In this document: piece after piece, positions 792-10,089 of the stretch
Layout of the letters: the number at the start of each line of letters is the position of its first letter
Numbering within the stretch: the first letter of the stretch is position 1
NCBI GenBank assembly: GCA_046160725.1
Contig: JBJXHB010000079.1
Coordinates: 1 to 11,061, forward strand
Length of the DNA stretch: 11,061 nt
Direction of reading: 5' to 3'
From: Aquabacterium sp.
GTDB taxonomy: Bacteria > Pseudomonadota > Gammaproteobacteria > Burkholderiales > Burkholderiaceae_C
Program-made: the position numbers and the translations under genes
The notes under the pieces: generated by a model
Databases searched by the model: none
Told to the model about the DNA's origin: nothing
The model's input: only the letters and a program-made list of their open reading frames with translations

Positions 792-1934
792 TCAGCCCTT
801 CAGCGTCACCAGCCCGTTGAGCACCTGGTCCAGGCCGCCGAACACGGTGATTTTGTCGATGCGCTCGGCCACACGTTCCAGCGTCTCGAGTTCCTTCATG
901 CGCAGCGCAACGGGGCTGCCTTCCATCACCTTGGCGGTGTTGAGCAGCGATCGCGTCGCCGCGGTCTCCTCGCGACGCCGGATCGCATTGGCCTCGGCCG
1001 CCTTGCCCGCCTCCACCACCTGCGCCAAGATGGTCTTCATCGCGCCGGGCAGCACGATGTCCTTCACGCCCACGCCGACCAGCTGCATCCCGTAGTCCGC
1101 GAGCCTGGTGCTGACCTGGGTGGTCACGATCTCGTCGATCACCGTCTTGTTTTCCAGCAGTTCGTCGAGCGAACGGGTGCCCACGGCCGCGCGCAGCCCC
1201 AGCTGCAGCTCGCGATACAGGTACTCCGCCGGCTGCTGCAGTTCCCCGTAGGCCAGCTGCACGTCGCTGAACCGCCAGGTGGCCGACAGGTTCAGGCGCA
1301 GCGCCACCTTGTCGCGGGTCAGGATCTCCTGCCCCGAGACCTCGATGGTCTGCAGCCGCAGGTCCACGATCTCCACCGCCACCGGGCGCTTGAACTTCCA
1401 GAACGCGTAGGACCCCGGCTCCAGCAGGCGCTCGACCTTGCCGTAGGTCGACAGGATGCCGGCACCGTGACGGGGCACCTGCACCTGCAGCACGCCGGAC
1501 AGGCCCGCCACCGCAGGCTGGCGCTGCTGCGACTGCAGCAAACGCAACAGGACCGGCGCCGGCACCTCGGCCGACTCCGCGATTTCGATCACCTCGACAT
1601 CCACCGCCACGATGCCCTTCCAGTACAGGCGCCGGGTACCCGGCGGCATCACCTCGACCAGCGCGCCGTTCTCGGTGCGCAGGCCGACCTGGTTCTCGGT
1701 GAGTTCCACGCGCAGGAACTCCGCGGCCACGACCGCGGGCTCGCGGGCCAGCAGGTAGTCGGCCAGGCCATGGGTGAACGCGGCTTGCTCCAGCGCGAAG
1801 ATCTTCACGCTCAGATCGTCCATCGGCGCGACCAGCCAATGCGTGCCGGGCTGCAGCACGCGCTCGAAATCGCCATTGCGCAGCAGCAGGCCGCGTTCGT
1901 TCTTCTTCACAGTGACACGCTTGAGCATCTTCAT
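792..1934 (-). CDS. SPFH/band-7 (stomatin/HflK-like, slipin) domain protein, 380 aa. The N-terminal beta-region is duplicated and there is no obvious N-terminal TM helix.
   Basis: Internal start MKMLKRVTVKKNERGLLLRNGDFERVLQPGTHWL of track ORF 792..2363. GGAGAA RBS 5 nt upstream of ATG (reverse complement of 1932-1934). Second SPFH-like N-strand GKVERLLEPGSYAFWKFKRPVAVEIVDLRLQTIEVSGQEILTRDKVAL. C-terminus AQVVEAGKAAEANAIRRREETAATR...KITVFGG is typical of band-7 coiled-coil tails. The stop lies 28 nt upstream of the rtcB start. Confidence 0.85.
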   Translation of the reverse strand: MKMLKRVTVKKNERGLLLRNGDFERVLQPGTHWLVAPMDDLSVKIFALEQAAFTHGLADYLLAREPAVVAAEFLRVELTENQVGLRTENGALVEVMPPGTRRLYWKGIVAVDVEVIEIAESAEVPAPVLLRLLQSQQRQPAVAGLSGVLQVQVPRHGAGILSTYGKVERLLEPGSYAFWKFKRPVAVEIVDLRLQTIEVSGQEILTRDKVALRLNLSATWRFSDVQLAYGELQQPAEYLYRELQLGLRAAVGTRSLDELLENKTVIDEIVTTQVSTRLADYGMQLVGVGVKDIVLPGAMKTILAQVVEAGKAAEANAIRRREETAATRSLLNTAKVMEGSPVALRMKELETLERVAERIDKITVFGGLDQVLNGLVTLKG

Positions 1935-2693
1935 GGTGTTCTCCGGTTGTGGGATGCGTGGGGTGGTCTGGTGACGGTGTAGGTGCCGTACAGCAGCAGC
2001 CGCGGACCGCGAATGCCAGGGCTGGGGCACCAGGGTGTGCCGAGGCCGTCTTCGGTTCGCCGGGTTGCGCAACCCCGCAAGGGGCTTCGCGCCGGGCGAT
2101 GAAGGCCGTCTCGGCTGGCCATGGGCGCCATGCCCCGCTTGCTCGCGGCACAAGCGGCCGCCGCTGATGGGCCGGTGCCCCGCTGCCTTGCGGCAGCCGT
2201 GCAACGTCCCACGTCCGGCGTGGTCTTTCGACCAGCTTCTGGGTTTCAATACCAGGACTTGCAGCGGGGGGTTGTGCCCGCCTTGAACAACGGTTTCAGT
2301 CGTTGTTCGTCTGCAGCTTCGGGCGGTCCGGCATGGACGACACCAACGGGCGGACCCGGGCATCGCCCACCAGCGGGGAGAACCTCACGTTGCAACGAGG
2401 CCCGATCCCCTGGCCTTTCGGCTCTCGCCTTCCTCAGCAGATTCGTGTGTGCCCGGGCCACTCAGCCCAGGCGCGATCCTTTCGGCGGCCGGTTTGACCG
2501 GCACGATGGTTGTTCTGTCGCACGCACTTCGGCTGTGTCCCTGCGCGAGAATCCCGTCGGATGTGGTGTCTCGCTGCACGGGGCCAGGCCCTGGACCGCG
2601 CACATCCCGGGCCACCAACACCTGTCGGCGTGGCCACGGAGTGCAGGGGCACACCCGAAGTGGGGCGATCAGAAAAGCGATCGAACAAAGAAA

Positions 2694-2724
2694 GAGGCCC
2701 GGATCCTTTCGGCATCCGGGCCTC
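2694..2724 (-). terminator. Rho-independent terminator on the minus strand. Perfect 11-bp GC-rich stem (gaggcccggat / atccgggcctc) with a 9-nt loop, then UUUCUUUGUU on the minus strand.
   Basis: Read directly. 2694-2704 pairs with 2714-2724. The plus strand has an A-rich run (aaagaaag) 5' of the stem and no T-run 3', so the terminator is oriented for minus-strand transcripts coming from >2724. Confidence 0.5.
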
Positions 2725-2942
2725 TGCGTACAGAGTGGGAAGGTGCGCGCGAACTAGTGGTGTCCTGCGTGTCCTTCACCCGGAATCGATGGGCCCTGGG
2801 CGCTGCCGCGTGGGCCGACGCCTATTGAGGCAAGGCCCAGCGCAACGCGTGCGACCACACCCCGGCCCTGTGTGGGTGGGTTGGTCCAATGGGCGCGGTG
2901 TGTCTTCACGGTCTGGCTCGGTGGGTCGATTCGGGGCGGACT

Positions 2943-2957
2943 GTAAAGAGTCTTTAC
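2943..2957. promoter_or_regulatory. AT-rich 7-1-7 perfect palindrome GTAAAGA-G-TCTTTAC, 24 nt upstream of the HTH regulator start. Candidate operator overlapping its promoter.
   Basis: Read directly. It is an AT-rich island in 70% GC DNA, immediately 5' of the ATG at 2981. Confidence 0.35.
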
Positions 2958-2980
2958 GCAGCCGTCAACCCCCTGCGAGA

Positions 2981-3394
2981 ATGTTCTTCCCCCTTGTTGT
3001 GGATCGAGCGCGGCGCGTGTCCAACCTCACTGTTGCCAGAAGGCGCAATGCCCTGGCCCTGTTCCAGGACTTCGCCGAGCGCGCGGTAGCCGGCGGCGGG
3101 TCACCGAAGGGGCTGGAGCAGGCCTTCGCGGCCCTGCTGCAGGTCTCGCCCAGCATGTGGAGCCAGGTCAAGTCCGCGCGGCCGATCGGCGACAAGCTGG
3201 CGCGGCAGATCGAGGCCGCCTGCGGCAAGCCATCGGGCTGGCTCGACGAGGAACGCGCGGCGGCCGTGCTCAGCCCTGCCGAGCAGACCTTTCTCGATCT
3301 CGCGCTGGCGGCCTACCGGTCGACGAATGCGCAGGGGAGACGTTCGCTGCGGGCTCAGCTTCAGGCGCTGATGAAGGAGCGCGACACGTCGTAG
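2981..3394 (+). CDS. XRE/Cro-CI family helix-turn-helix transcriptional regulator, 137 aa (phage-repressor-like DNA-binding protein).
   Basis: The C-terminal part of track ORF 2510..3394. The upstream 150 aa are R/G-rich junk, so the start is taken at ATG 2981 (GTG 2999 is an alternative). The HTH signature LQVSPSMWSQVKSARPIGDKLARQIEAACGKPSGWLDEE matches the Cro/CI helix2-helix3 and 'G.R.P...wL' pattern. Confidence 0.55.
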   Translation: MFFPLVVDRARRVSNLTVARRRNALALFQDFAERAVAGGGSPKGLEQAFAALLQVSPSMWSQVKSARPIGDKLARQIEAACGKPSGWLDEERAAAVLSPAEQTFLDLALAAYRSTNAQGRRSLRAQLQALMKERDTS

Positions 3395-3651
3395 CTCATC
3401 GGCAGGTCCTGTGCCGCCACGTGGCCATGGCGTCGTACCCGATTGCCTTCAGGGACGCTTGTTCGGGCGGCGCCTTCGGGCTGTCTGCGGTGTGTCGGGA
3501 TGTCCGCTGTCGTTTCGCTTGACGCATTGGCGCGGCAAGGCCCGGGCCGGCGGGCTTGGCAGCCAGAGTCCGGCGCCCGGCCCTGCGGTCCGGGTGCCCT
3601 GCGATCCTCGGCACGGGGCTTAAAGCATGAGCACTTGGCCCAACCCGGGGA

Positions 3652-3686
3652 CCCCTGCGGCCCCTGCGCCCCTGCGGCCCCTGCGG
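3652..3686. repeat. Tandem repeat, ~4 copies of the 9-nt unit CCCCTGCGG (one copy 8 nt), ending in GGGGG.
   Basis: Read directly at 3652-3690, in ORF-poor DNA between the HTH regulator and the TA module. Confidence 0.6.
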
Positions 3687-3851
3687 GGGCTGTCGAGATC
3701 GGACAACAAATCCGAACCACCGGCAGCCAGATTCAACAGATCGCTATGGTCCAAGTCACGCAAACTGGCCTCCACGAAACCCGGTGCGGTTCACGGCGCC
3801 GGTGCGCCGCAGTTGCAAGCCATCCGAGCGGGCGGCTCATGCCGAGTCAAG

Positions 3852-3880
3852 TTGCGAGGATATATCCATTTCAGTATAGT
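3852..3880 (+). promoter_or_regulatory. Sigma70-type promoter TTGCGA-17nt-TATAGT for the toxin-antitoxin operon. The spacer contains the perfect palindrome GGATATATCC (3858-3867). The -10 ends 6 nt before the toxin ATG, so the mRNA is probably leaderless.
   Basis: Read directly. The 17-nt spacer is exact and there is no SD between the -10 and ATG 3887. The palindrome is a plausible antitoxin autorepression operator. Confidence 0.5.
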
Positions 3881-3886
3881 CACGCC

Positions 3887-4063
3887 ATGAAGGCGATCAC
3901 CTTCCTGGGCAACTCGCTGGCGTGCTTGCGCGATTTCCCAGAGGACGCGAGACAGGACGCCGGTTACGTGCTGCACGCCTTCCAGAAGAAGACCCAGGCC
4001 ACCAGCAAGCAGGACATCGAGATTGCGAGAAGTCGATACACCGAACTGATGCGAGGGCGTTGA
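3887..4063 (+). pseudogene. HigB/RelE-ParE-fold toxin (HI1419 / Gp49-like 'addiction module killer' family) with an in-frame internal deletion. It encodes 58 aa against ~100-115 aa expected.
   Basis: MKAITFLGNSLACLRDFPEDARQDAGY joined directly to VLHAFQKKTQATSKQDIEIARSRYTELMRGR. The conserved N-terminus and the C-terminal 'VYVLHAFQKKTQKT' box are present, but the central beta-sheet core (~45 aa) is missing. The stop overlaps the antitoxin start (ATGA-type overlap at 4061-4065). Confidence 0.6.
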
Positions 4064-4347
4064 TGAAGAAGCGAGACAAGACCTACGCCAGCGTCTGGGA
4101 CGCCCTGGCCGACACGCCCGAGCAGGCGGCCAACCTGCAGGCCAGGGCGGACCTGATGCGCCAGCTCGCCGAGCTGATCCAGGCCAAGGGCTGGAAACAG
4201 ATCGAAGCGGCCGAGCGCTGCGGTGTCACTCAGCCACGCATCAACGATCTGCTGCGCGGGCGCGTGTCGCGGTTCTCGCTCGATGCTCTGGTGAACATCG
4301 CGACGTCGCTCGGGCGGCGCGTGAGCGTGGAGCTCGAAGCGGCCTGA
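4063..4347 (+). CDS. higA: HigA-family / HTH_37-type antitoxin (XRE HTH), 94 aa.
   Basis: MKKRDKTYASVWDALADTPEQAANLQARADLMRQLAELIQAKGWKQIEAAERCGVTQPRINDLLRGRVSRFSLDALVNIATSLGRRVSVELEAA, with the characteristic 'PRI(S/N)DLLRGR...FSLDALV...LGRRV' signature of antidotes paired with Gp49/HigB-like toxins. The track ORF 3922..4347 uses an upstream in-frame ATG. ATG 4063 is preferred because it overlaps the toxin stop. Confidence 0.8.
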   Translation: MKKRDKTYASVWDALADTPEQAANLQARADLMRQLAELIQAKGWKQIEAAERCGVTQPRINDLLRGRVSRFSLDALVNIATSLGRRVSVELEAA

Positions 4348-4386: not shown

Positions 4387-5364
4387 TCAGGCCAGCGCTA
4401 GGAACACCCCAAACCATCCCCGCTCGTCGGTCCAGTGCTGCACATCCCGCCAGCCCGCGTCGTGCAGCAGGGCCTTGAAGCCGGGCAGCGTCCACTTGTA
4501 CGAGTTCTCGGTGTGCATCCGCTCGCCGGCGGCAAAGGCGCGCTGCCCGCCGTCGAACGACACCGTGACATCACGCCGCGCCTGCAGATGCATCTCGATG
4601 CGCGACTCGGCGGTGTTGAAGAAGGCCACATGGGCCCAGTCACGGACGTGGAAGTCCGCGCCGATCAGGGCGTTCACGTGCTTGAGCAGGTTGAGGTTGA
4701 AGGCCGCCGTCACCCCCAGCGCGTCGTCATAGGCCGGCTCCAGGATGTCGCTAGCCTTGACCAGGTCGACGCCGATCAGCAGCGCGCCGCCGCCGCTGGC
4801 CTCGCGCGCCTCGCGCATCAGGCGCAGCGCATCCTGCGGCGCGAAGTTGCCGATGCTGGAGCCGGGGTAGAAGACCACGGCCGGGCCGCCCGGCAGCTCG
4901 GCCGGCAGCTGCAGGCGCTGCGAGAAGTCCAGCCCCAGGCCCACCATCTCGATGCCGGGATGCTCCCGCGCCAGGCGCGTCACGCCGTCGCGCAGATAGG
5001 CCACCGAGATGTCCACCGGCACATAGCGGCGCGGCCGCATCAGCGGAAACAGCCGCGCACTCTTGGCCCCATCGCCCGCGCCCAGGTCGATCCAGGTCAA
5101 GTCCGTGCCGACCGCCGCGTGCACCGCGGCGGCCATCGCCGGCCCGTGCGCCGCGAAGATGGCGGCCTCGGTGCGGGTCGGGTAGTACTCCGGCAGCTCG
5201 GTGATGGCGTCGAACAGCCGCGACCCCAGCGGGTCGTACAGATACTTGGGAGAAACCCGCGCTGGCGACAGGGCCAGGCCGGCGCGCAGCTCGGCGCGCA
5301 CACCCTCCTGGTCCTCGTGATGCAGCTGGATGAAGCGCGCCGGCGCGACTTGGATGGTGGGCAT
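4387..5364 (-). CDS. egtD: L-histidine N-alpha-methyltransferase EgtD (ergothioneine biosynthesis), 325 aa.
   Basis: Track ORF 4387..5487 trimmed to the internal start MPTIQVAPARF (ATG is the reverse complement of 5362-5364). Sequence shows ...YLYDPLGSRLFDAITELPEYYPTRTE...VDLGAGDG...FYPGSSIGNF...ENSYKWT..., the EgtD/dimethylhistidine methyltransferase fold and length. Confidence 0.88.
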   Translation of the reverse strand: MPTIQVAPARFIQLHHEDQEGVRAELRAGLALSPARVSPKYLYDPLGSRLFDAITELPEYYPTRTEAAIFAAHGPAMAAAVHAAVGTDLTWIDLGAGDGAKSARLFPLMRPRRYVPVDISVAYLRDGVTRLAREHPGIEMVGLGLDFSQRLQLPAELPGGPAVVFYPGSSIGNFAPQDALRLMREAREASGGGALLIGVDLVKASDILEPAYDDALGVTAAFNLNLLKHVNALIGADFHVRDWAHVAFFNTAESRIEMHLQARRDVTVSFDGGQRAFAAGERMHTENSYKWTLPGFKALLHDAGWRDVQHWTDERGWFGVFLALA

Positions 5365-5506
5365 CGGGTTCACTGTAGCGGGGCTTGACCGACCGCCGCA
5401 CGGGTGGATGGCGGCTGAGTTGTAATCTGCGGCCGATGCGCGGCGACCTTCCGTCGCACCGGCCGGTGCCGTCCTTCGTCGTTCCAACCCTGACTGGAGT
5501 TACGCC

Positions 5507-6373
5507 ATGCTCGACCTTTCCCCCTCCCGCACCCTGAAAGCCCTGATGACCCTGGCGCTGGTGGCCATCGGCACGCTGGCGCATGCCCAGGCCGTGTTCC
5601 GCGTCACCACCATACCGGAGGAGGCGGCCACCGAGCAGGTGCGCAAGTTCACCCCGTTGGCGACGTACCTTGAAAAGAAGTTGGGCGTGAAGGTCGAGTT
5701 CACCCCGGTCAGCGACTATCCCGCCGCCGTCGAGGCCCTGGTCAACAAGAAGGTCGACCTGGTCTGGTTTGGTGGCTTCACCCATGTGCAGGCGCAGATC
5801 CGCTCCGGCGGCAAGATCGTGCCGATCGCGCAGCGCGAGGAAGACACCCAGTTCCGCTCGGTCTTCATTGCCAAGACCGACTCCGGCATCAAGACCATGG
5901 CCGACATGAAGGGCAAGCAGGTCAGCTTCGGATCGCAGAGCAGCACCTCGGGCCACCTGATGCCGCGCAGCAACCTGCTGGACGCCGGCATCAACCCGGA
6001 CAAGGATTTCCGCCGCATCGCCTACAGCGGTGCGCATGACGCGACCATCGCCTCGGTGGTCAGCGGCAAGGTCGACGCCGCCGCGCTGGACATCACCGTG
6101 TGGCGCAAGTTCGTGTCCGAGAACAAGGTCGACACCAAGGCGGTCGACGTGTTCTTCACCACCCCCCCGTACTACAACTACAACTGGTCGGTGCATGCCG
6201 ACATGCCCGCCGCGATGCGCGACAGGGTGCAGAAGGCACTGCTGGACCTGGACTCGGCCACGCCGGAAGGCAAGGAGATCCTGCAGTTGAACCGGGCCAC
6301 GCGCTACATCCCGACCAAGGCCGAGAACTACAAGGGCCTGGAGGCCGCCGGCCGCAGCGCCGGGCTGATCTGA
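5507..6373 (+). CDS. phnD: PhnD/PtxB-family periplasmic substrate-binding protein of a phosphonate-type ABC transporter, 288 aa with a signal peptide.
   Basis: N-terminal signal MLDLSPSRTLKALMTLALVAIGTLAHAQA. Colinear with E. coli PhnD (KLGVKVEF..DY.....KVDLVWFGG; anion-binding loop FGSQSSTSGHLMP vs FGNGDPNSTSGFLVP). GGAG RBS at 5496-5499. Confidence 0.85.
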   Translation: MLDLSPSRTLKALMTLALVAIGTLAHAQAVFRVTTIPEEAATEQVRKFTPLATYLEKKLGVKVEFTPVSDYPAAVEALVNKKVDLVWFGGFTHVQAQIRSGGKIVPIAQREEDTQFRSVFIAKTDSGIKTMADMKGKQVSFGSQSSTSGHLMPRSNLLDAGINPDKDFRRIAYSGAHDATIASVVSGKVDAAALDITVWRKFVSENKVDTKAVDVFFTTPPYYNYNWSVHADMPAAMRDRVQKALLDLDSATPEGKEILQLNRATRYIPTKAENYKGLEAAGRSAGLI

Positions 6374-6386
6374 TACCGGGCACCCG

Positions 6387-7223
6387 GTGCAGATCTCGAT
6401 CGAGGCGCTGGACGCCCGGCACCCGGCCGCGCGCGCTGGCGCGGCGCCGGCGCTGCGCGGCCTGGCCCTGACGGTGGCCAGTGCCGAGGCGCTGGCGGTG
6501 ATCGGGCCCTCCGGGGCCGGCAAGACCACCCTGCTGCAGGTCCTGGCCTGCGCGCTGAAGCCCGATGCCGGCCGGGTGGTGGTCGATGGCATCGACCCCT
6601 GGTCGCTGCCGCGGCGCCAGCTGCAGGCGTTGCGCGGGCAGCTGCTGCTGGCGCCGCAGGTGCCGCCGTTGCCGCCCCGGCAGCGCGTGGTGACCTCGGT
6701 GCTGGCCGGCCGGCTGCCGGCCTGGTCGCTGTGGACCAGCCTGCGCTCGCTGCTGTATCCCGTCGACATACCAGCCGCCCATGACGCCCTGGCCCGCTTC
6801 GACCTGGCCGAGAAGCTGTTCGAGCGGGTCGACCGGCTGTCCGGCGGCGAGCGACAACGCGTCGGCCTGGCCCGCACGCTGCTGGCGCCGGCCCGCCTGT
6901 GGCTGATCGACGAGCCGCTGTCGGCGCTGGACCCGACGCGCGCCGCGCTGGCGCTGCGCACGCTGGTGGACGAGGCCCGCGCGCGGCGCGTCACGCTGGT
7001 GGCCACCCTGCACGACGTGCCGATGGCACTGTCGCACTTCCCGCGCATCGTCGGCCTGCGCGACGGCCGCGTGCAGTTCGACCTGCAGGCCGCGGCGGTG
7101 ACGCCCGAGCGCCTGCAGGCCCTGTATGCCCAGCACGAGCACGAGCTGCTGGGTGGGGCGGCGACGGCCTCCGACACCGCCGCCGCGCCGCCGCCGGCAC
7201 CGGTGGTCATGCACTGCCGCTGA
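6387..7223 (+). CDS. phnC: ABC transporter ATP-binding protein (PhnC-like), 278 aa, GTG start.
   Basis: Walker A GPSGAGKTT, ABC signature LSGGERQRVGLAR, Walker B LWLIDEPLSALD, H-loop TLHDV. Starts 13 nt after the phnD stop. Confidence 0.9.
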   Translation: MQISIEALDARHPAARAGAAPALRGLALTVASAEALAVIGPSGAGKTTLLQVLACALKPDAGRVVVDGIDPWSLPRRQLQALRGQLLLAPQVPPLPPRQRVVTSVLAGRLPAWSLWTSLRSLLYPVDIPAAHDALARFDLAEKLFERVDRLSGGERQRVGLARTLLAPARLWLIDEPLSALDPTRAALALRTLVDEARARRVTLVATLHDVPMALSHFPRIVGLRDGRVQFDLQAAAVTPERLQALYAQHEHELLGGAATASDTAAAPPPAPVVMHCR

Positions 7224-7247
7224 GCCGCTGCGCCGCCACCCAGCCGC

Positions 7248-8084
7248 ATGACCGCACCGACGCTGCCCGCCCCGCCCAGCCGCGACCCGGCCTGGGTGTC
7301 GCGCGTCGCCCTGCTCAGCGTGGCGGCGGTGCTGCTGTGGCCGCTGATGGTGGCCACGGAGTTCAAGCCCTGGATCTTCCTGGAGCGGGACAACCTCAAG
7401 GTCACCGGGCAGTTCCTGGCCAGCTTCCTGCCGCCGGCCCACTCGGCCGAGTTCATGGCCATGGTGGCGCGCGAGAGCTGGCGCACGGTGGCCATCGCCA
7501 CCGCCGGCATGACCCTGGCGCTGGTAATCGCCATCCCGCTGGCGGTGCTGTCCGCCCGGGTGCTGTCGGTGTCGGCGCTGTCGGGCCGAATGGCGCGCGG
7601 GCCGACGCTGCTGCGCCAGGCCGTGCGCTGGCTGCTGATCGTGCTGCGCAGCGTGCCCGAGCTGGTGTGGGCGCTGGTGTTCGTCCGCGTGGTCGGCCTG
7701 GGCCCCACGGCCGGCGTGCTGGCCATCGCCCTGACGTATGGCGGCATGCTGGGCAAGGTCTACGGCGAGATCCTGGAAAGCGGCGAGCCCCATGCCACCC
7801 AGACGCTGCTGCGCAACGGCGGCTCGCGCCTGCAGGCCTTCGCCTACGGCCTGCTGCCGCAGAACGCCGCCGAGCTGACCAGCTACACCGTCTACCGCTG
7901 GGAGTGCGCCATCCGCAGCTCGGTGGTGCTGGGCTTCGTCGGTGCCGGCGGGCTGGGCCAGCAGCTGGACAACTCGATGAAGATGTTCAATGGCGGCGAG
8001 GTGCTGACCATGCTGGCCGTCTTCGTCGGCCTGGTGGCGCTGGCCGACCGCGTCAGCGCGGGCCTGCGGCGGGCCCTGGGGTGA
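7248..8084 (+). CDS. phnE: Phosphonate-type ABC transporter permease PhnE (copy 1), 278 aa.
   Basis: Multi-TM hydrophobic protein with the PhnE/PtxC-type EAA-like loop region. Starts 24 nt after the phnC stop. Confidence 0.85.
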   Translation: MTAPTLPAPPSRDPAWVSRVALLSVAAVLLWPLMVATEFKPWIFLERDNLKVTGQFLASFLPPAHSAEFMAMVARESWRTVAIATAGMTLALVIAIPLAVLSARVLSVSALSGRMARGPTLLRQAVRWLLIVLRSVPELVWALVFVRVVGLGPTAGVLAIALTYGGMLGKVYGEILESGEPHATQTLLRNGGSRLQAFAYGLLPQNAAELTSYTVYRWECAIRSSVVLGFVGAGGLGQQLDNSMKMFNGGEVLTMLAVFVGLVALADRVSAGLRRALG

Positions 8085-8088
8085 GCGC

Positions 8089-8925
8089 ATGACGTCGCCC
8101 GCCTCCCCAGCCGGCGCGACGGCGCCGCAGCGCTTGCCGCCACCGCTGTTCAGCGCGCGCTGCCGCGGCTGCTGGTTCACCGCCGCGCTGCTGGTGCTGG
8201 TGGTGGCCAGCTTCTGGACCCTGGACCTGCAGTGGGCGCAGTTCCTGTCCCTGGACGCGGCGCGCAGCATGGGCCGCTTCATCGGCGAGTTCTTCCCGCC
8301 GGACACCAGCCCGGCCTTCCTGCGCCGCGTGGCCATCGGCGCCTGGGAGACGCTGGCCATGTCCGCCTTCGGCACGCTGCTGGCCGCCCTGGGCGGGCTG
8401 GCGCTGGCCCTGCCGGCCAGCCGCCTGTACGACGGCGACGCGGCGCGCGCCCGCGGCGCCACCCGGCTGCTGCTGAACGCGCTGCGCTCGATACCGGAGC
8501 TGGTGTGGGCCGGCCTGCTGCTGATCGCCGCGGGCCTCGGGCCCTTCGCCGGCACGCTCGCCCTGGCCATGCACACCACCGGCGTGCTGGGCCGGCTGTT
8601 CGCCGAGGCCATCGAGAACGCCCCCAGCGGCCCCGGCACCGCGCTGCGCACCCATGGCGTGGGCAACCTGCGGGTGTTCGTCTATGCCACGCTGCCGCAG
8701 GTGTTGCCGCAGCTGATGAGCTACACCTTGTACCGCTGGGAGAACAACATCCGCGCGGCCGCGGTTCTGGGCGTGGTCGGTGCCGGCGGGCTGGGCCAGC
8801 TGCTGGCCTTCCACATGGGCCTGTTCCACATGGGCAAGACCTGCACCATCCTCGGCGCGATGCTGCTGATGGTGGCCCTGGTGGACGCCGCCAGCGACGT
8901 CATGCGGCGCTGGATGGCCCGCTGA
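8089..8925 (+). CDS. phnE: Phosphonate-type ABC transporter permease PhnE (copy 2), 278 aa. A paralogue of the preceding gene, suggesting a heterodimeric permease.
   Basis: Paralogous to 7248-8084 (shared ...SIPELVWAGLL..., ...SYTLYRWENNIRAAAVLGVVGAGGLGQ...). Starts 4 nt after the upstream stop. Confidence 0.85.
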   Translation: MTSPASPAGATAPQRLPPPLFSARCRGCWFTAALLVLVVASFWTLDLQWAQFLSLDAARSMGRFIGEFFPPDTSPAFLRRVAIGAWETLAMSAFGTLLAALGGLALALPASRLYDGDAARARGATRLLLNALRSIPELVWAGLLLIAAGLGPFAGTLALAMHTTGVLGRLFAEAIENAPSGPGTALRTHGVGNLRVFVYATLPQVLPQLMSYTLYRWENNIRAAAVLGVVGAGGLGQLLAFHMGLFHMGKTCTILGAMLLMVALVDAASDVMRRWMAR

Positions 8926-9100
8926 TGCCGACGGCCACGGCGCCGCGCAAGGGCTGCCCCCGATCACCAGGGCCGGCCCGCTGCCGTAACCTCCGGGCCG
9001 CCCCCAGCGACTGCCTGACCATGCCCGACATCTGCATCGGCCCGCCGCCCACCCGCCCGCGAGTCCGCGCTTGAGCGTGCTGGGCCTTCCGCCGCTGAGC

Positions 9101-9439
9101 GTGCCCCAGGCCTGGGCCGTGCTGTCGGTCGCCATCCTGTTCGAGGTCGCCGGCACGACCTGCATGCGGCTGTGCGAGGGCTTCACGCGGCTGACGCCTT
9201 CGGTGCTGATCTTCGTTTTCTACGCCATCTCGTTCGCGCTCAACGTCAGCGTCATCCGGGTCCTGGGCATGAGCGTCACCTATGCCGTCTGGTCGGGCGT
9301 GGGCACGCTGCTGACGGCCTTGATCGGCTACCTGTACTTCAAGGAGCCGGCCACGGCGCTGAAGATGATGTCGGCGGGGCTGATCGTGATCGGCGTGTTC
9401 GGGCTGCATGCGTCGTCGCGCGCGGCGGCGGCTTCCTGA
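9101..9439 (+). CDS. Small multidrug resistance (SMR) family transporter, EmrE/Qac-like, ~112 aa. GTG start chosen; the track start TTG 9071 would add a 10-aa extension.
   Basis: ...AILFEVAGTTCMRLCEGFTRLTPSVLIFVFYAISFALNVSVIRVLGMSVTYAVWSGVGTLLTALIGYLY... is colinear with E. coli EmrE (AILAEVIGTTLMKFSEGFTRLWPSV...AYAIWSGVGIVLISLLSW). With the 9101 start the conserved membrane Glu falls at position 15, against Glu14 in EmrE. Confidence 0.8.
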   Translation: MPQAWAVLSVAILFEVAGTTCMRLCEGFTRLTPSVLIFVFYAISFALNVSVIRVLGMSVTYAVWSGVGTLLTALIGYLYFKEPATALKMMSAGLIVIGVFGLHASSRAAAAS

Positions 9440-9456: not shown

Positions 9457-10089
9457 ATGGGCGCGATGAGCGACAACGAGTTGTCGATCCAGCGCTACCG
9501 GCACCGCGCCGCGGGCTATGACGCCTCGGCCCGGCTGACCATGCCGTTGCGCGAGCGCGCCATCGCACTGCTGGCGCTGAAACCCGGCGACGTGGTGGTC
9601 GACGTCGGCGCCGGCACCGGCCTGAGCTATGGCCTGCTGCTGGAGGCTGTCGGCCCGGCCGGCCGCGTGCTGGCCTTCGAGCAGAGCCCGGAGATGTTCG
9701 CCCAGGCCCGGGCCCGCGTCGGCCGCGAGGGCTGGGGCGGCCGGGTGGTGCACCGGCTGGGCCGCGCCGAGGACGTGCGGTTCGAGCAGCCCGCCGATGC
9801 CATCCTCTTCAACTACGTGCACGACATCAGCCGCACGCCCGAGGCCGTGGCCAACCTGCTGTCGCAGGTGCGCCCGGGTGGCCGCGTGGCCATGGCGGGC
9901 ATGAAGTTCGTTCCCTGGTGGACCGGGCCACTCAATCTGCTGGCCTGGGCCAAGAATCGCCCCTACAACGCCAAGGCGGCCGACCTGTGGGCGCCCTGGG
10001 ACCATGTGCAGCGCCACTGCGCGCGCTTCGACCGCCAATCCACGCAGTGGGGCATGGGCTACATCGCCCACGGCCGGCTGCCGGGCTGA
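9457..10089 (+). CDS. Class I SAM-dependent methyltransferase, 210 aa. Substrate unknown.
   Basis: SAM motif I VVDVGAGTGLS, followed by the acidic motif II region (VLAFEQSP) and motif III (RPGGRVAM). The internal ATG 9457 of track ORF 9172..10089 is chosen because the preceding SMR gene ends at 9439. Lies 17 nt after the SMR stop and 21 nt before egtB. Confidence 0.8.
   Translation: MGAMSDNELSIQRYRHRAAGYDASARLTMPLRERAIALLALKPGDVVVDVGAGTGLSYGLLLEAVGPAGRVLAFEQSPEMFAQARARVGREGWGGRVVHRLGRAEDVRFEQPADAILFNYVHDISRTPEAVANLLSQVRPGGRVAMAGMKFVPWWTGPLNLLAWAKNRPYNAKAADLWAPWDHVQRHCARFDRQSTQWGMGYIAHGRLPG

Follow-up and report, generated by a model that had tools for sequence, protein, structure and literature searches.

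Ergothioneine and selenoneine are widely studied antioxidants whose methylated forms have been measured in humans, animals and fungi; S-methyl-ergothioneine and Se-methyl-selenoneine are natural metabolites in mammals, fission yeast and mushrooms. Every known pathway to ergothioneine or selenoneine starts with an enzyme of the EgtD family. In the literature we searched, no enzyme is named for the formation of S-methyl-ergothioneine or Se-methyl-selenoneine, and nothing relevant was found on a bacterial S- or Se-methyltransferase for ergothioneine or selenoneine, on MmtA, or on methyltransferases in sen clusters. The text of the sen-cluster preprint does not contain the word methyltransferase, and its supplementary text contains neither that word nor SMR. 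The methyltransferase OvsM is described as similar to the OvoA domain (10.1101/2024.04.10.588772). Here we analyze a stretch of 11,061 bp (the window), the complete contig of a metagenome-assembled genome (MAG) of Aquabacterium sp., in which a stand-alone methyltransferase of 210 amino acids, dependent on S-adenosylmethionine (SAM) and called MTase below, lies between the genes of an SMR-family exporter and a type II sulfoxide synthase (EgtB-II). Many Burkholderiales of fresh water and soil share the partnership of MTase, EgtB and SMR, and because of this conservation the cluster probably serves to make or handle a methylated compound related to ergothioneine.

Relatives of MTase (E <= 0.001, clusters at 90% identity) number 1,636, and the top 120 are all 67–83% identical; a representative library at 50% identity holds 68 clusters at 1e-30 and 739 at 1e-10. 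A scan of one genome per GTDB species detected relatives in 225 species, the best 80 of which all belong to the Burkholderiales (Polaromonas, Rhodoferax, Variovorax, Hydrogenophaga, Rubrivivax, Ideonella, Aquabacterium, Methylibium and Ramlibacter). Co-occurrence was counted by mapping reference proteins with tblastn onto the loci of these best 80 genomes; the loci span up to 10 kb on each side of MTase, and those with enough downstream sequence are termed informative. EgtB-II lies directly downstream of MTase in 45 of 68 informative loci. The spacing of MTase and egtB is tight, from a 4-nt overlap to 34 nt. The most frequent neighbour is the SMR gene: of 79 loci, 61 have it directly upstream, 35 times in the direction of MTase and 26 times divergent from it. 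Where flanks are long (31 loci), EgtB is adjacent in 22, SMR is found in 23, and senA/B/C occur within 10 kb in 18. Distant homologs in other synteny contexts, i.e. P0129 in locus L092 (46% identity) and those in L117 and L120 (49–54%), are likewise placed directly upstream of EgtB-II. The earlier note on this DNA had made co-occurrence with egtB in other genomes the test of its proposal, and the association holds down to the most distant of these homologs. Two further homologs differ in their surroundings: one of 50% identity adjoins a gene with a metallo-beta-lactamase fold, and one of 52% has no such neighbour. In a neighbour-joining tree of MTase, the EgtB-adjacent state spans the entire clade including the deepest branches, with EgtB-less loci scattered within it, and the SMR linkage is confined to the crown group. 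Hence, MTase and EgtB are the ancestral pair; EgtB was lost (or moved) many times, and SMR joined later.

Natural insertions and deletions tell which of these genes are gained and lost together. The loci L095 (egtD|egtB) and L069 (egtD|SMR-MTase-egtB) are colinear, with 81–84% of nucleotides identical on either side of the point where L069 has an additional SMR-MTase cassette of 1.1 kb. This makes MTase an addition to a locus in which EgtD and EgtB were already present, and the cassette fits a tailoring-plus-export supplement to a full egtD/egtB pair. In the isolate Variovorax sp. PCZ-1 the order is egtD-patatin-SMR|senA-senB, and both MTase and EgtB are lacking; unlike this isolate, a syntenic metagenome contig contains MTase-EgtB precisely between SMR and senA. 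Locus L098, finally, possesses EgtB alone where L117 and L120 possess MTase-EgtB, in a common synteny with about 70% protein identity. Thus, MTase is a hub between EgtB and the pump: it travels with the synthase or with the pump, and is gained or lost together with either partner. Two MTase copies carry nonsense codons (L074, 1329-1931; L089, 843-1457), and both loci are without egtB. The affected positions are the invariant L31, in a Variovorax MAG that lost EgtB, and Y170; no others occur among the copies. These alleles could reflect decay after the loss of the partner or sequencing errors in the MAGs. L089 comes from the same MAG as the intact SMR-MTase-egtB locus L030.

We tentatively favour the reading that MTase methylates an ergothioneine-type betaine and that the pump exports the product, with substrate, acceptor atom and cargo all proposed from genomic context. 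MTase would be transcribed with, and often translationally coupled to, the upstream SMR-type exporter and the downstream EgtB-II. EgtD and EgtB would make a thio-imidazole betaine (ergothioneine, and probably selenoneine where sen genes are present), which MTase would then methylate with SAM. The chemically easiest and most nucleophilic acceptor would be the thione sulfur or selenium, leading to S-methyl-ergothioneine or Se-methyl-selenoneine; alternative acceptors would be a ring nitrogen, in parallel to ovothiol, or the carboxylate. The adjacent SMR pump would export the methylated compound. EgtD occurs within 10 kb in all 18 sen islands that keep MTase; the two methyltransferases are retained side by side and are therefore not treated as redundant. 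Moreover, a hub position between synthase and exporter is expected of an enzyme that converts a product for export, and on these grounds we prefer tailoring to a replacement of EgtD.

Several observations weigh against the tailoring of a betaine. About one third of the loci (24 of 68) contain an apparently intact MTase without an adjacent egtB, and among the 31 well-flanked loci, 6 lack both egtB and sen genes within 10 kb. Of 13 loci without sen genes, only one has EgtD within that distance, and EgtD follows EgtB in none of 39 MTase-EgtB loci, which also fits a displacement of EgtD. S-methylation would end the redox chemistry of the thione, so that its benefit to the cell is not evident. Cell extracts of a Variovorax with sen and egt genes are reported to have contained ergothioneine and selenoneine, with no mention of methylated forms; these extracts were made from pellets only. 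Furthermore, searches with the predicted fold do not discriminate among known methyltransferases, and neither sequence nor fold reveals the acceptor atom.

The nature of the partner synthase bears on what a neighbouring methyltransferase could supply or receive. Although cut short at the contig end, the window's EgtB exceeds the TIGR03440 cut-off (376 versus 360 bits) over 296 of 413 model positions. The fragment scores 309 bits to the EgtB-II of Chloracidobacterium thermophilum, 88 to type I EgtB, 73 to OvsA, 70 to SenA and 52 to OvoA. It possesses the DinB and FGE domains and the Tyr-Tyr, Arg..Arg and H-x-x-Q-H motifs of type II EgtB; the C-terminal N-F-F motif is present in full-length relatives, and the window's copy ends before that part. 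According to the composite-motif scheme for EgtB-II (10.1101/2024.04.10.588772), the enzyme should use hercynine and cysteine, because these motifs are present. An OvsM/OvsA pair of the ovoselenol type was rejected on the scores to C. thermophilum EgtB and OvsA given above, and a synthase of 5-thio- or 5-seleno-histidine was rejected as well, the synthase being EgtB-II and EgtD being encoded in the window.

The small number of egtD genes near MTase-EgtB pairs raises the question whether MTase could be a non-orthologous replacement of EgtD and would itself make hercynine (or another N-alpha-methylated histidine) for the adjacent EgtB. A set of 42 EgtB-II loci collected without reference to MTase comprises 33 with EgtD as a neighbour, one with this MTase and eight with neither; in the MTase-EgtB loci, from which an EgtD after EgtB is absent, it is MTase that occupies the position upstream of EgtB. 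EgtD, constant in loci with sen and rare in those without, behaves as part of the sen module, while MTase-EgtB moves as a unit. PmtA, the best structural neighbour, N-methylates its substrate three times in succession and so reaches a quaternary amine, and phosphoethanolamine N-methyltransferases are among the matches of MTase. The partner EgtB retains its hercynine-type motifs, so it needs betaine from some source. On the other hand, the compact egtD|SMR-MTase-egtB loci L069, L059 and L085 hold both methyltransferases, L095 representing the cassette-less version, and every one of the 18 sen islands keeps EgtD beside MTase. In the related loci L098, L101 and L103, EgtB persists with neither MTase nor an adjacent EgtD, and in L177 EgtD is located far from any EgtB; hercynine could thus realistically come from an EgtD encoded elsewhere. 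In addition, MTase has no similarity to the EgtD family, and a replacement would leave the SMR linkage unexplained. Taken together, we consider a replacement of EgtD unlikely. With the same reserve we regard its extension, namely that MTase-EgtB is a self-sufficient, convergent two-gene ergothioneine route in Burkholderiales without egtD, analogous to EgtD-EgtB. No other type of methyltransferase was found next to stand-alone EgtB-II genes in the loci examined.

As the earlier note had stated, the 210-aa frame lies between the SMR gene and egtB with exactly the ends and the 21-nt gap to egtB given there: 17 nt separate the SMR stop from the MTase start, and 21 nt the MTase stop from the egtB start. 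The automatic list of open reading frames carries the frame back through the SMR gene to a GTG at 9172, a start that is not credible; the NCBI call on the same contig (P0001) begins three codons downstream, with 207 aa and 100% identity. GC contents of 0.73, 0.51 and 0.93 at codon positions 1, 2 and 3 are like those of the flanking genes, and against three homologs pN is 0.18–0.21 and pS 0.42–0.60 (dN/dS about 0.2–0.35). The gene is real and under purifying selection.

The protein contains a GxGxG motif, passes four generic Pfam methyltransferase models and has the marks of class I (Rossmann-fold) enzymes, i.e. a motif I rich in glycine, an acidic residue that follows strand 2 and an alpha/beta fold of seven strands. 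Its AlphaFold model (pLDDT 82.7, pTM 0.83) is of Rossmann type, and the sole weak segment is a lid-like stretch at about residues 150–175. Invariant throughout the family are Y14, Y21-D22, H122-D123 and P180-W181; of these, Y14, Y21-D22 and H122-D123 appear to sit at class I positions for SAM binding and acceptor activation. The EgtB-linked clade has its own signature residues (K166, N167, N171, T196, Q197 and M200), located in the lid and the C-terminal hairpin; they are obvious candidates for substrate recognition. Behind PmtA, the top fold neighbour, come methyltransferases of mixed type (O-, C-, N- and S-). PDB sequence and profile searches returned no characterised close relative, only generic ones such as RebM, 3dh0 and the phosphoethanolamine N-methyltransferases; structure therefore confirms a small-molecule class I methyltransferase, not the acceptor atom.

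No curated family claims MTase, and all NCBIfam matches are limited to the SAM-binding core. The best are ArsM-type models (45–49 bits versus cut-offs of 263–460). ArsM itself, the JGI label of homologs, was rejected (NF008823, 44.6 bits against a cut-off of 263, Rossmann core only): the set of As(III)-binding cysteines is absent, and the single conserved cysteine, C188, is conserved within the crown group only and not in the wider family. UbiE/MenG, the JGI label of some homologs, was discarded with 26 bits for the best UbiE models against cut-offs of 216–378; Pfam PF01209 barely exceeds its cut-off (23.4 versus 20.1 bits), again in the core only. PIMT/PCMT was discarded too, with NCBIfam scores of 22–30 bits against cut-offs of 159–282 and a PF01135 match of 39.7 bits that covers profile positions 64–170 of 210 alone. 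Neither PF10017 nor TIGR03438 matches the protein, which excludes membership in the EgtD/Methyltransf_33 family and agrees with the earlier view of a stand-alone methyltransferase in addition to the separately encoded EgtD. The methyltransferase domain of OvoA and OvsM was rejected for want of sequence homology, and OvoA is missing from the PDB sequence, profile and fold match lists. Two of the classes that had been suggested before, OvoA-like and UbiE-like, are thus among those rejected. The Pfam, NCBIfam and PDB searches place MTase in no characterised family, and in this sense the well-defined unrelated substrate that would have spoken against the earlier proposal did not emerge. The general idea of an extra methylation that makes the cluster distinct survives as the best-supported reading; the analogy to OvoA finds no support in sequence or structure, and that to TmtA no clear support. 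MTase belongs to an uncharacterised EgtB-linked clade, misnamed by present annotation.

The second partner, the SMR pump, stands by its overall score a little nearer to Gdx-Clo, an exporter of guanidinium (68 bits), than to EmrE (59 bits). Its binding-site motif reads E-V-A-G-T-T, compared with E-V-I-G-T-T in EmrE and an aligned E-V-V-W in Gdx-Clo. Judged by its sequence, the protein is thus intermediate between the subtypes, with an EmrE-type motif. The start codon is uncertain, the Pfam match beginning at residue 14. Quaternary ammonium cations are substrates of EmrE, and a trimethylammonium group is common to hercynine, ergothioneine and their methylated forms; the pump may carry one of these compounds. 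Export of glycine betaine by EmrE is reported in a passage of PMC13300293 that cites Bay and Turner 2012.

Because SMR is so constant a neighbour, SMR and MTase might also form a methylate-and-export detoxification pair for a target other than ergothioneine. Such a target could be excess selenide or other chalcogens, in the manner of TehB, TPMT and ArsM-like enzymes, or an unrelated toxic compound, with egtB nearby only through a shared stress or selenium island. The 61 adjacent SMR genes, the SMR-MTase pairs that persist alone in loci of the Polaromonas/Rhodoferax type, and an island rich in SelD/SenC, SenB, SenA, the TIGR04553 transporter and the YHS (seleno)protein NF041384 are all consistent with this model. 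The same holds for the weak ArsM-type matches with the corresponding JGI label "arsenite methyltransferase", and for a distant fusion of MTase and patatin behind an RND efflux pump. However, the deepest MTase-EgtB pairs (L092, L117, L120) have neither SMR nor selenium genes, so the link to EgtB is older than that to SMR or selenium. Seven well-flanked loci contain MTase-EgtB without sen genes, and in Variovorax MTase and EgtB are gained or lost together while SMR stays. Since the ArsM score and the lone crown-group cysteine argue against an arsenite enzyme as well, we hold detoxification to be less probable still than a replacement of EgtD.

The remaining alternative derives from the esterases of these loci. 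MTase could be a carboxyl O-methyltransferase that forms a transient ester, following the logic of BioC and BioH: esterification of hercynine, ergothioneine or a lipid-linked acid would yield a true cation for the SMR pump, and a neighbouring esterase would reverse it. A patatin-like esterase/lipase is present in 31 of 47 long loci, an alpha/beta-hydrolase esterase lies just 5' in Polaromonas-type loci, and a distant homolog of MTase is fused to a patatin domain; O-methyltransferases (RebM, TM0748, the Rv0187 type and the phosphonate O-methyltransferase DhpI) are among the fold neighbours, and BioC models of NCBIfam match weakly. Yet the patatin stays in Variovorax sp. PCZ-1, where MTase is absent. 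The adjacency of the esterases, missing from L092, L117 and L120, may be plain synteny. To our knowledge, no methyl ester of ergothioneine or hercynine exists in the record, which counts further against an ester, and we regard this explanation as quite improbable.

Some details of the esterases and fusions may be added. In L007 (9057-9935), L015, L024 and L052, all of Polaromonas/Rhodoferax type, an esterase of the BD-FAE/COesterase kind immediately precedes (SMR)/MTase; in L007 a gene for a PhyH-family dioxygenase stands beside it. This esterase could be a matter of plain synteny or a functional partner. The domain fusions of distant homologs are heterogeneous (MEDS/kinase, DUF5994, MaoC, PRC, GNAT, patatin and MerR-cyclase-YHS), and none of them involves EgtB. 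Homologs with 37–41% identity are fused to patatin and to MerR, adenylate cyclase and YHS domains (P0165, L179 2413-4023; P0247). The patatin fusion follows an RND pump of the AcrB type; in the island, separate genes for patatin and YHS proteins lie next to MTase.

In the window itself, Pfam and NCBIfam scans of the gene calls yield the features listed in the table.

Features of the 11,061-bp Aquabacterium sp. window, with strand and basis of the assignment
Feature	Position	Strand	Basis
SPFH/Band-7 protein	792-2363	-	Pfam/NCBIfam
Gp49-like toxin and HTH antitoxin pair	3443-4347	+	Pfam/NCBIfam
EgtD, histidine N-alpha-trimethyltransferase	4387-5487	-	TIGR03438, 355 bits
PhnD-like periplasmic binding protein of ABC system	5507-6373	+	TIGR04553, 367 bits
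ABC transporter ATP-binding protein, PhnC-like	6387-7223	+	Pfam/NCBIfam
PhnE-like ABC permease 1	7248-8084	+	Pfam/NCBIfam
PhnE-like ABC permease 2	8089-8925	+	Pfam/NCBIfam
SMR-family exporter	9071-9439	+	Pfam PF00893, 83.8 bits
Class I SAM methyltransferase (MTase), 210 aa	9457-10089	+	ATG at 9457, TGA at 10087-10089
Type II EgtB sulfoxide synthase, 5' part, 317 codons	10111-11061 (contig end)	+	TIGR03440, 376 bits

All genes from 5507 to the contig end are on the plus strand, with spacers of 4–145 nt, the longest of which (8926-9070) precedes the SMR gene. The terminator scan found no terminator-like site on the plus strand between 5507 and 11061; in the whole window, the scans gave no promoter-like site and a sole terminator-like site on the minus strand, and Rfam gave no riboswitch or other RNA element even at E <= 1. 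The TIGR04553 binding-protein gene opens an apparent operon that closes with SMR-MTase-EgtB, and egtD is divergent from it. The listed egtD frame of 366 aa, with its TTG start, probably begins too far upstream, because relatives have 320–331 aa and the family match starts at residue 64. The earlier note had called the transporter phosphonate-like and missed that TIGR04553 is annotated as "putative selenate ABC transporter substrate-binding protein". This ABC system and egtD form a divergent pair also at sites with no sen genes inside 9–10 kb (window 5507-8925; L177 5397-8840). Because the pairing persists without nearby sen genes, the ligand may be related to the histidine-betaine pathway, instead of or besides selenate. 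No sen gene was detected in the window by tblastn at 1e-10. The position of senA-senB-senC in relatives, upstream of egtD, is taken by the toxin/antitoxin pair and the SPFH gene, and the reading frames there (2121-3394) have no family match; the sen module seems to have been replaced or rearranged here.

The operon of the relatives is part of a combined selenoneine/ergothioneine island, another point absent from the earlier note. Its order is senC-senB-senA-egtD-ABC-SMR-MTase-egtB, for example in L001, a 476-kb JGI contig, with 533 bits for senC (SelD), 424 for senB (TIGR04348) and 445 for senA (NF041186). Downstream of egtB (L001 11970-19659), a 455-aa ATP-grasp-like protein without Pfam family is conserved, as are lipoproteins with a YHS domain, one to three in number, which belong to the "(seleno)protein" family NF041384 (110 bits); further conserved genes encode a patatin-like hydrolase, a fusion of VTT(DedA) with an FAD disulfide reductase, DUF547, Pyr_redox_2 and DUF3047. 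In the Variovorax-type islands L175 and L176, a Fer4 protein and an 880-aa molybdopterin oxidoreductase adjoin the ABC system, possibly as a reductase of selenate or another oxyanion, and SelD fused to Pyr_redox_2 (about 760 aa) replaces the plain senC.

MTase could make an ergothioneine derivative that is new, or provide the pathway with a second entry independent of EgtD; as a hercynine synthase, it would break the rule of a start by the EgtD family. Its function would also guide the naming of about 1,600 proteins (E <= 0.001) that are at present labelled "arsenite methyltransferase", "UbiE" or "class I SAM-dependent methyltransferase", and a bacterial exporter of the ergothioneine type would be of interest for the engineering of production strains.

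Compared with the systems described so far, the locus contains an uncharacterised enzyme family in a variant of the known ergothioneine and selenoneine clusters. Set against the thiol S-methyltransferases of the TmtA/GtmA type and the bacterial Se/Te/As methyltransferases (TPMT, TehB, ArsM), MTase has 14% identity to TmtA and lacks the score and the cysteines of ArsM; its top fold neighbour, PmtA (PDB 8ys9), is a bacterial phosphatidylethanolamine N-methyltransferase. With the OvoA domain and OvsM it shares the arrangement: a SAM methyltransferase genetically coupled to a DinB and FGE type sulfoxide or selenoxide synthase, tailoring thio- or seleno-histidine in those systems, and OvsM is likewise a separate gene beside genes of the senB/senC type (10.1101/2024.04.10.588772). 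The window resembles the canonical egtD-egtB cluster of type II in that its EgtD and EgtB-II exceed the curated cut-offs and the EgtB-II motifs are kept; unlike that cluster, its EgtD and EgtB are separated by an ABC operon, an SMR gene and the extra MTase. Its relatives resemble the sen selenoneine cluster, with senC-senB/senA/egtD and the TIGR04553 transporter directly upstream of SMR-MTase-egtB, whereas the window itself has no sen genes beside the transporter, the pump, MTase and the synthase.

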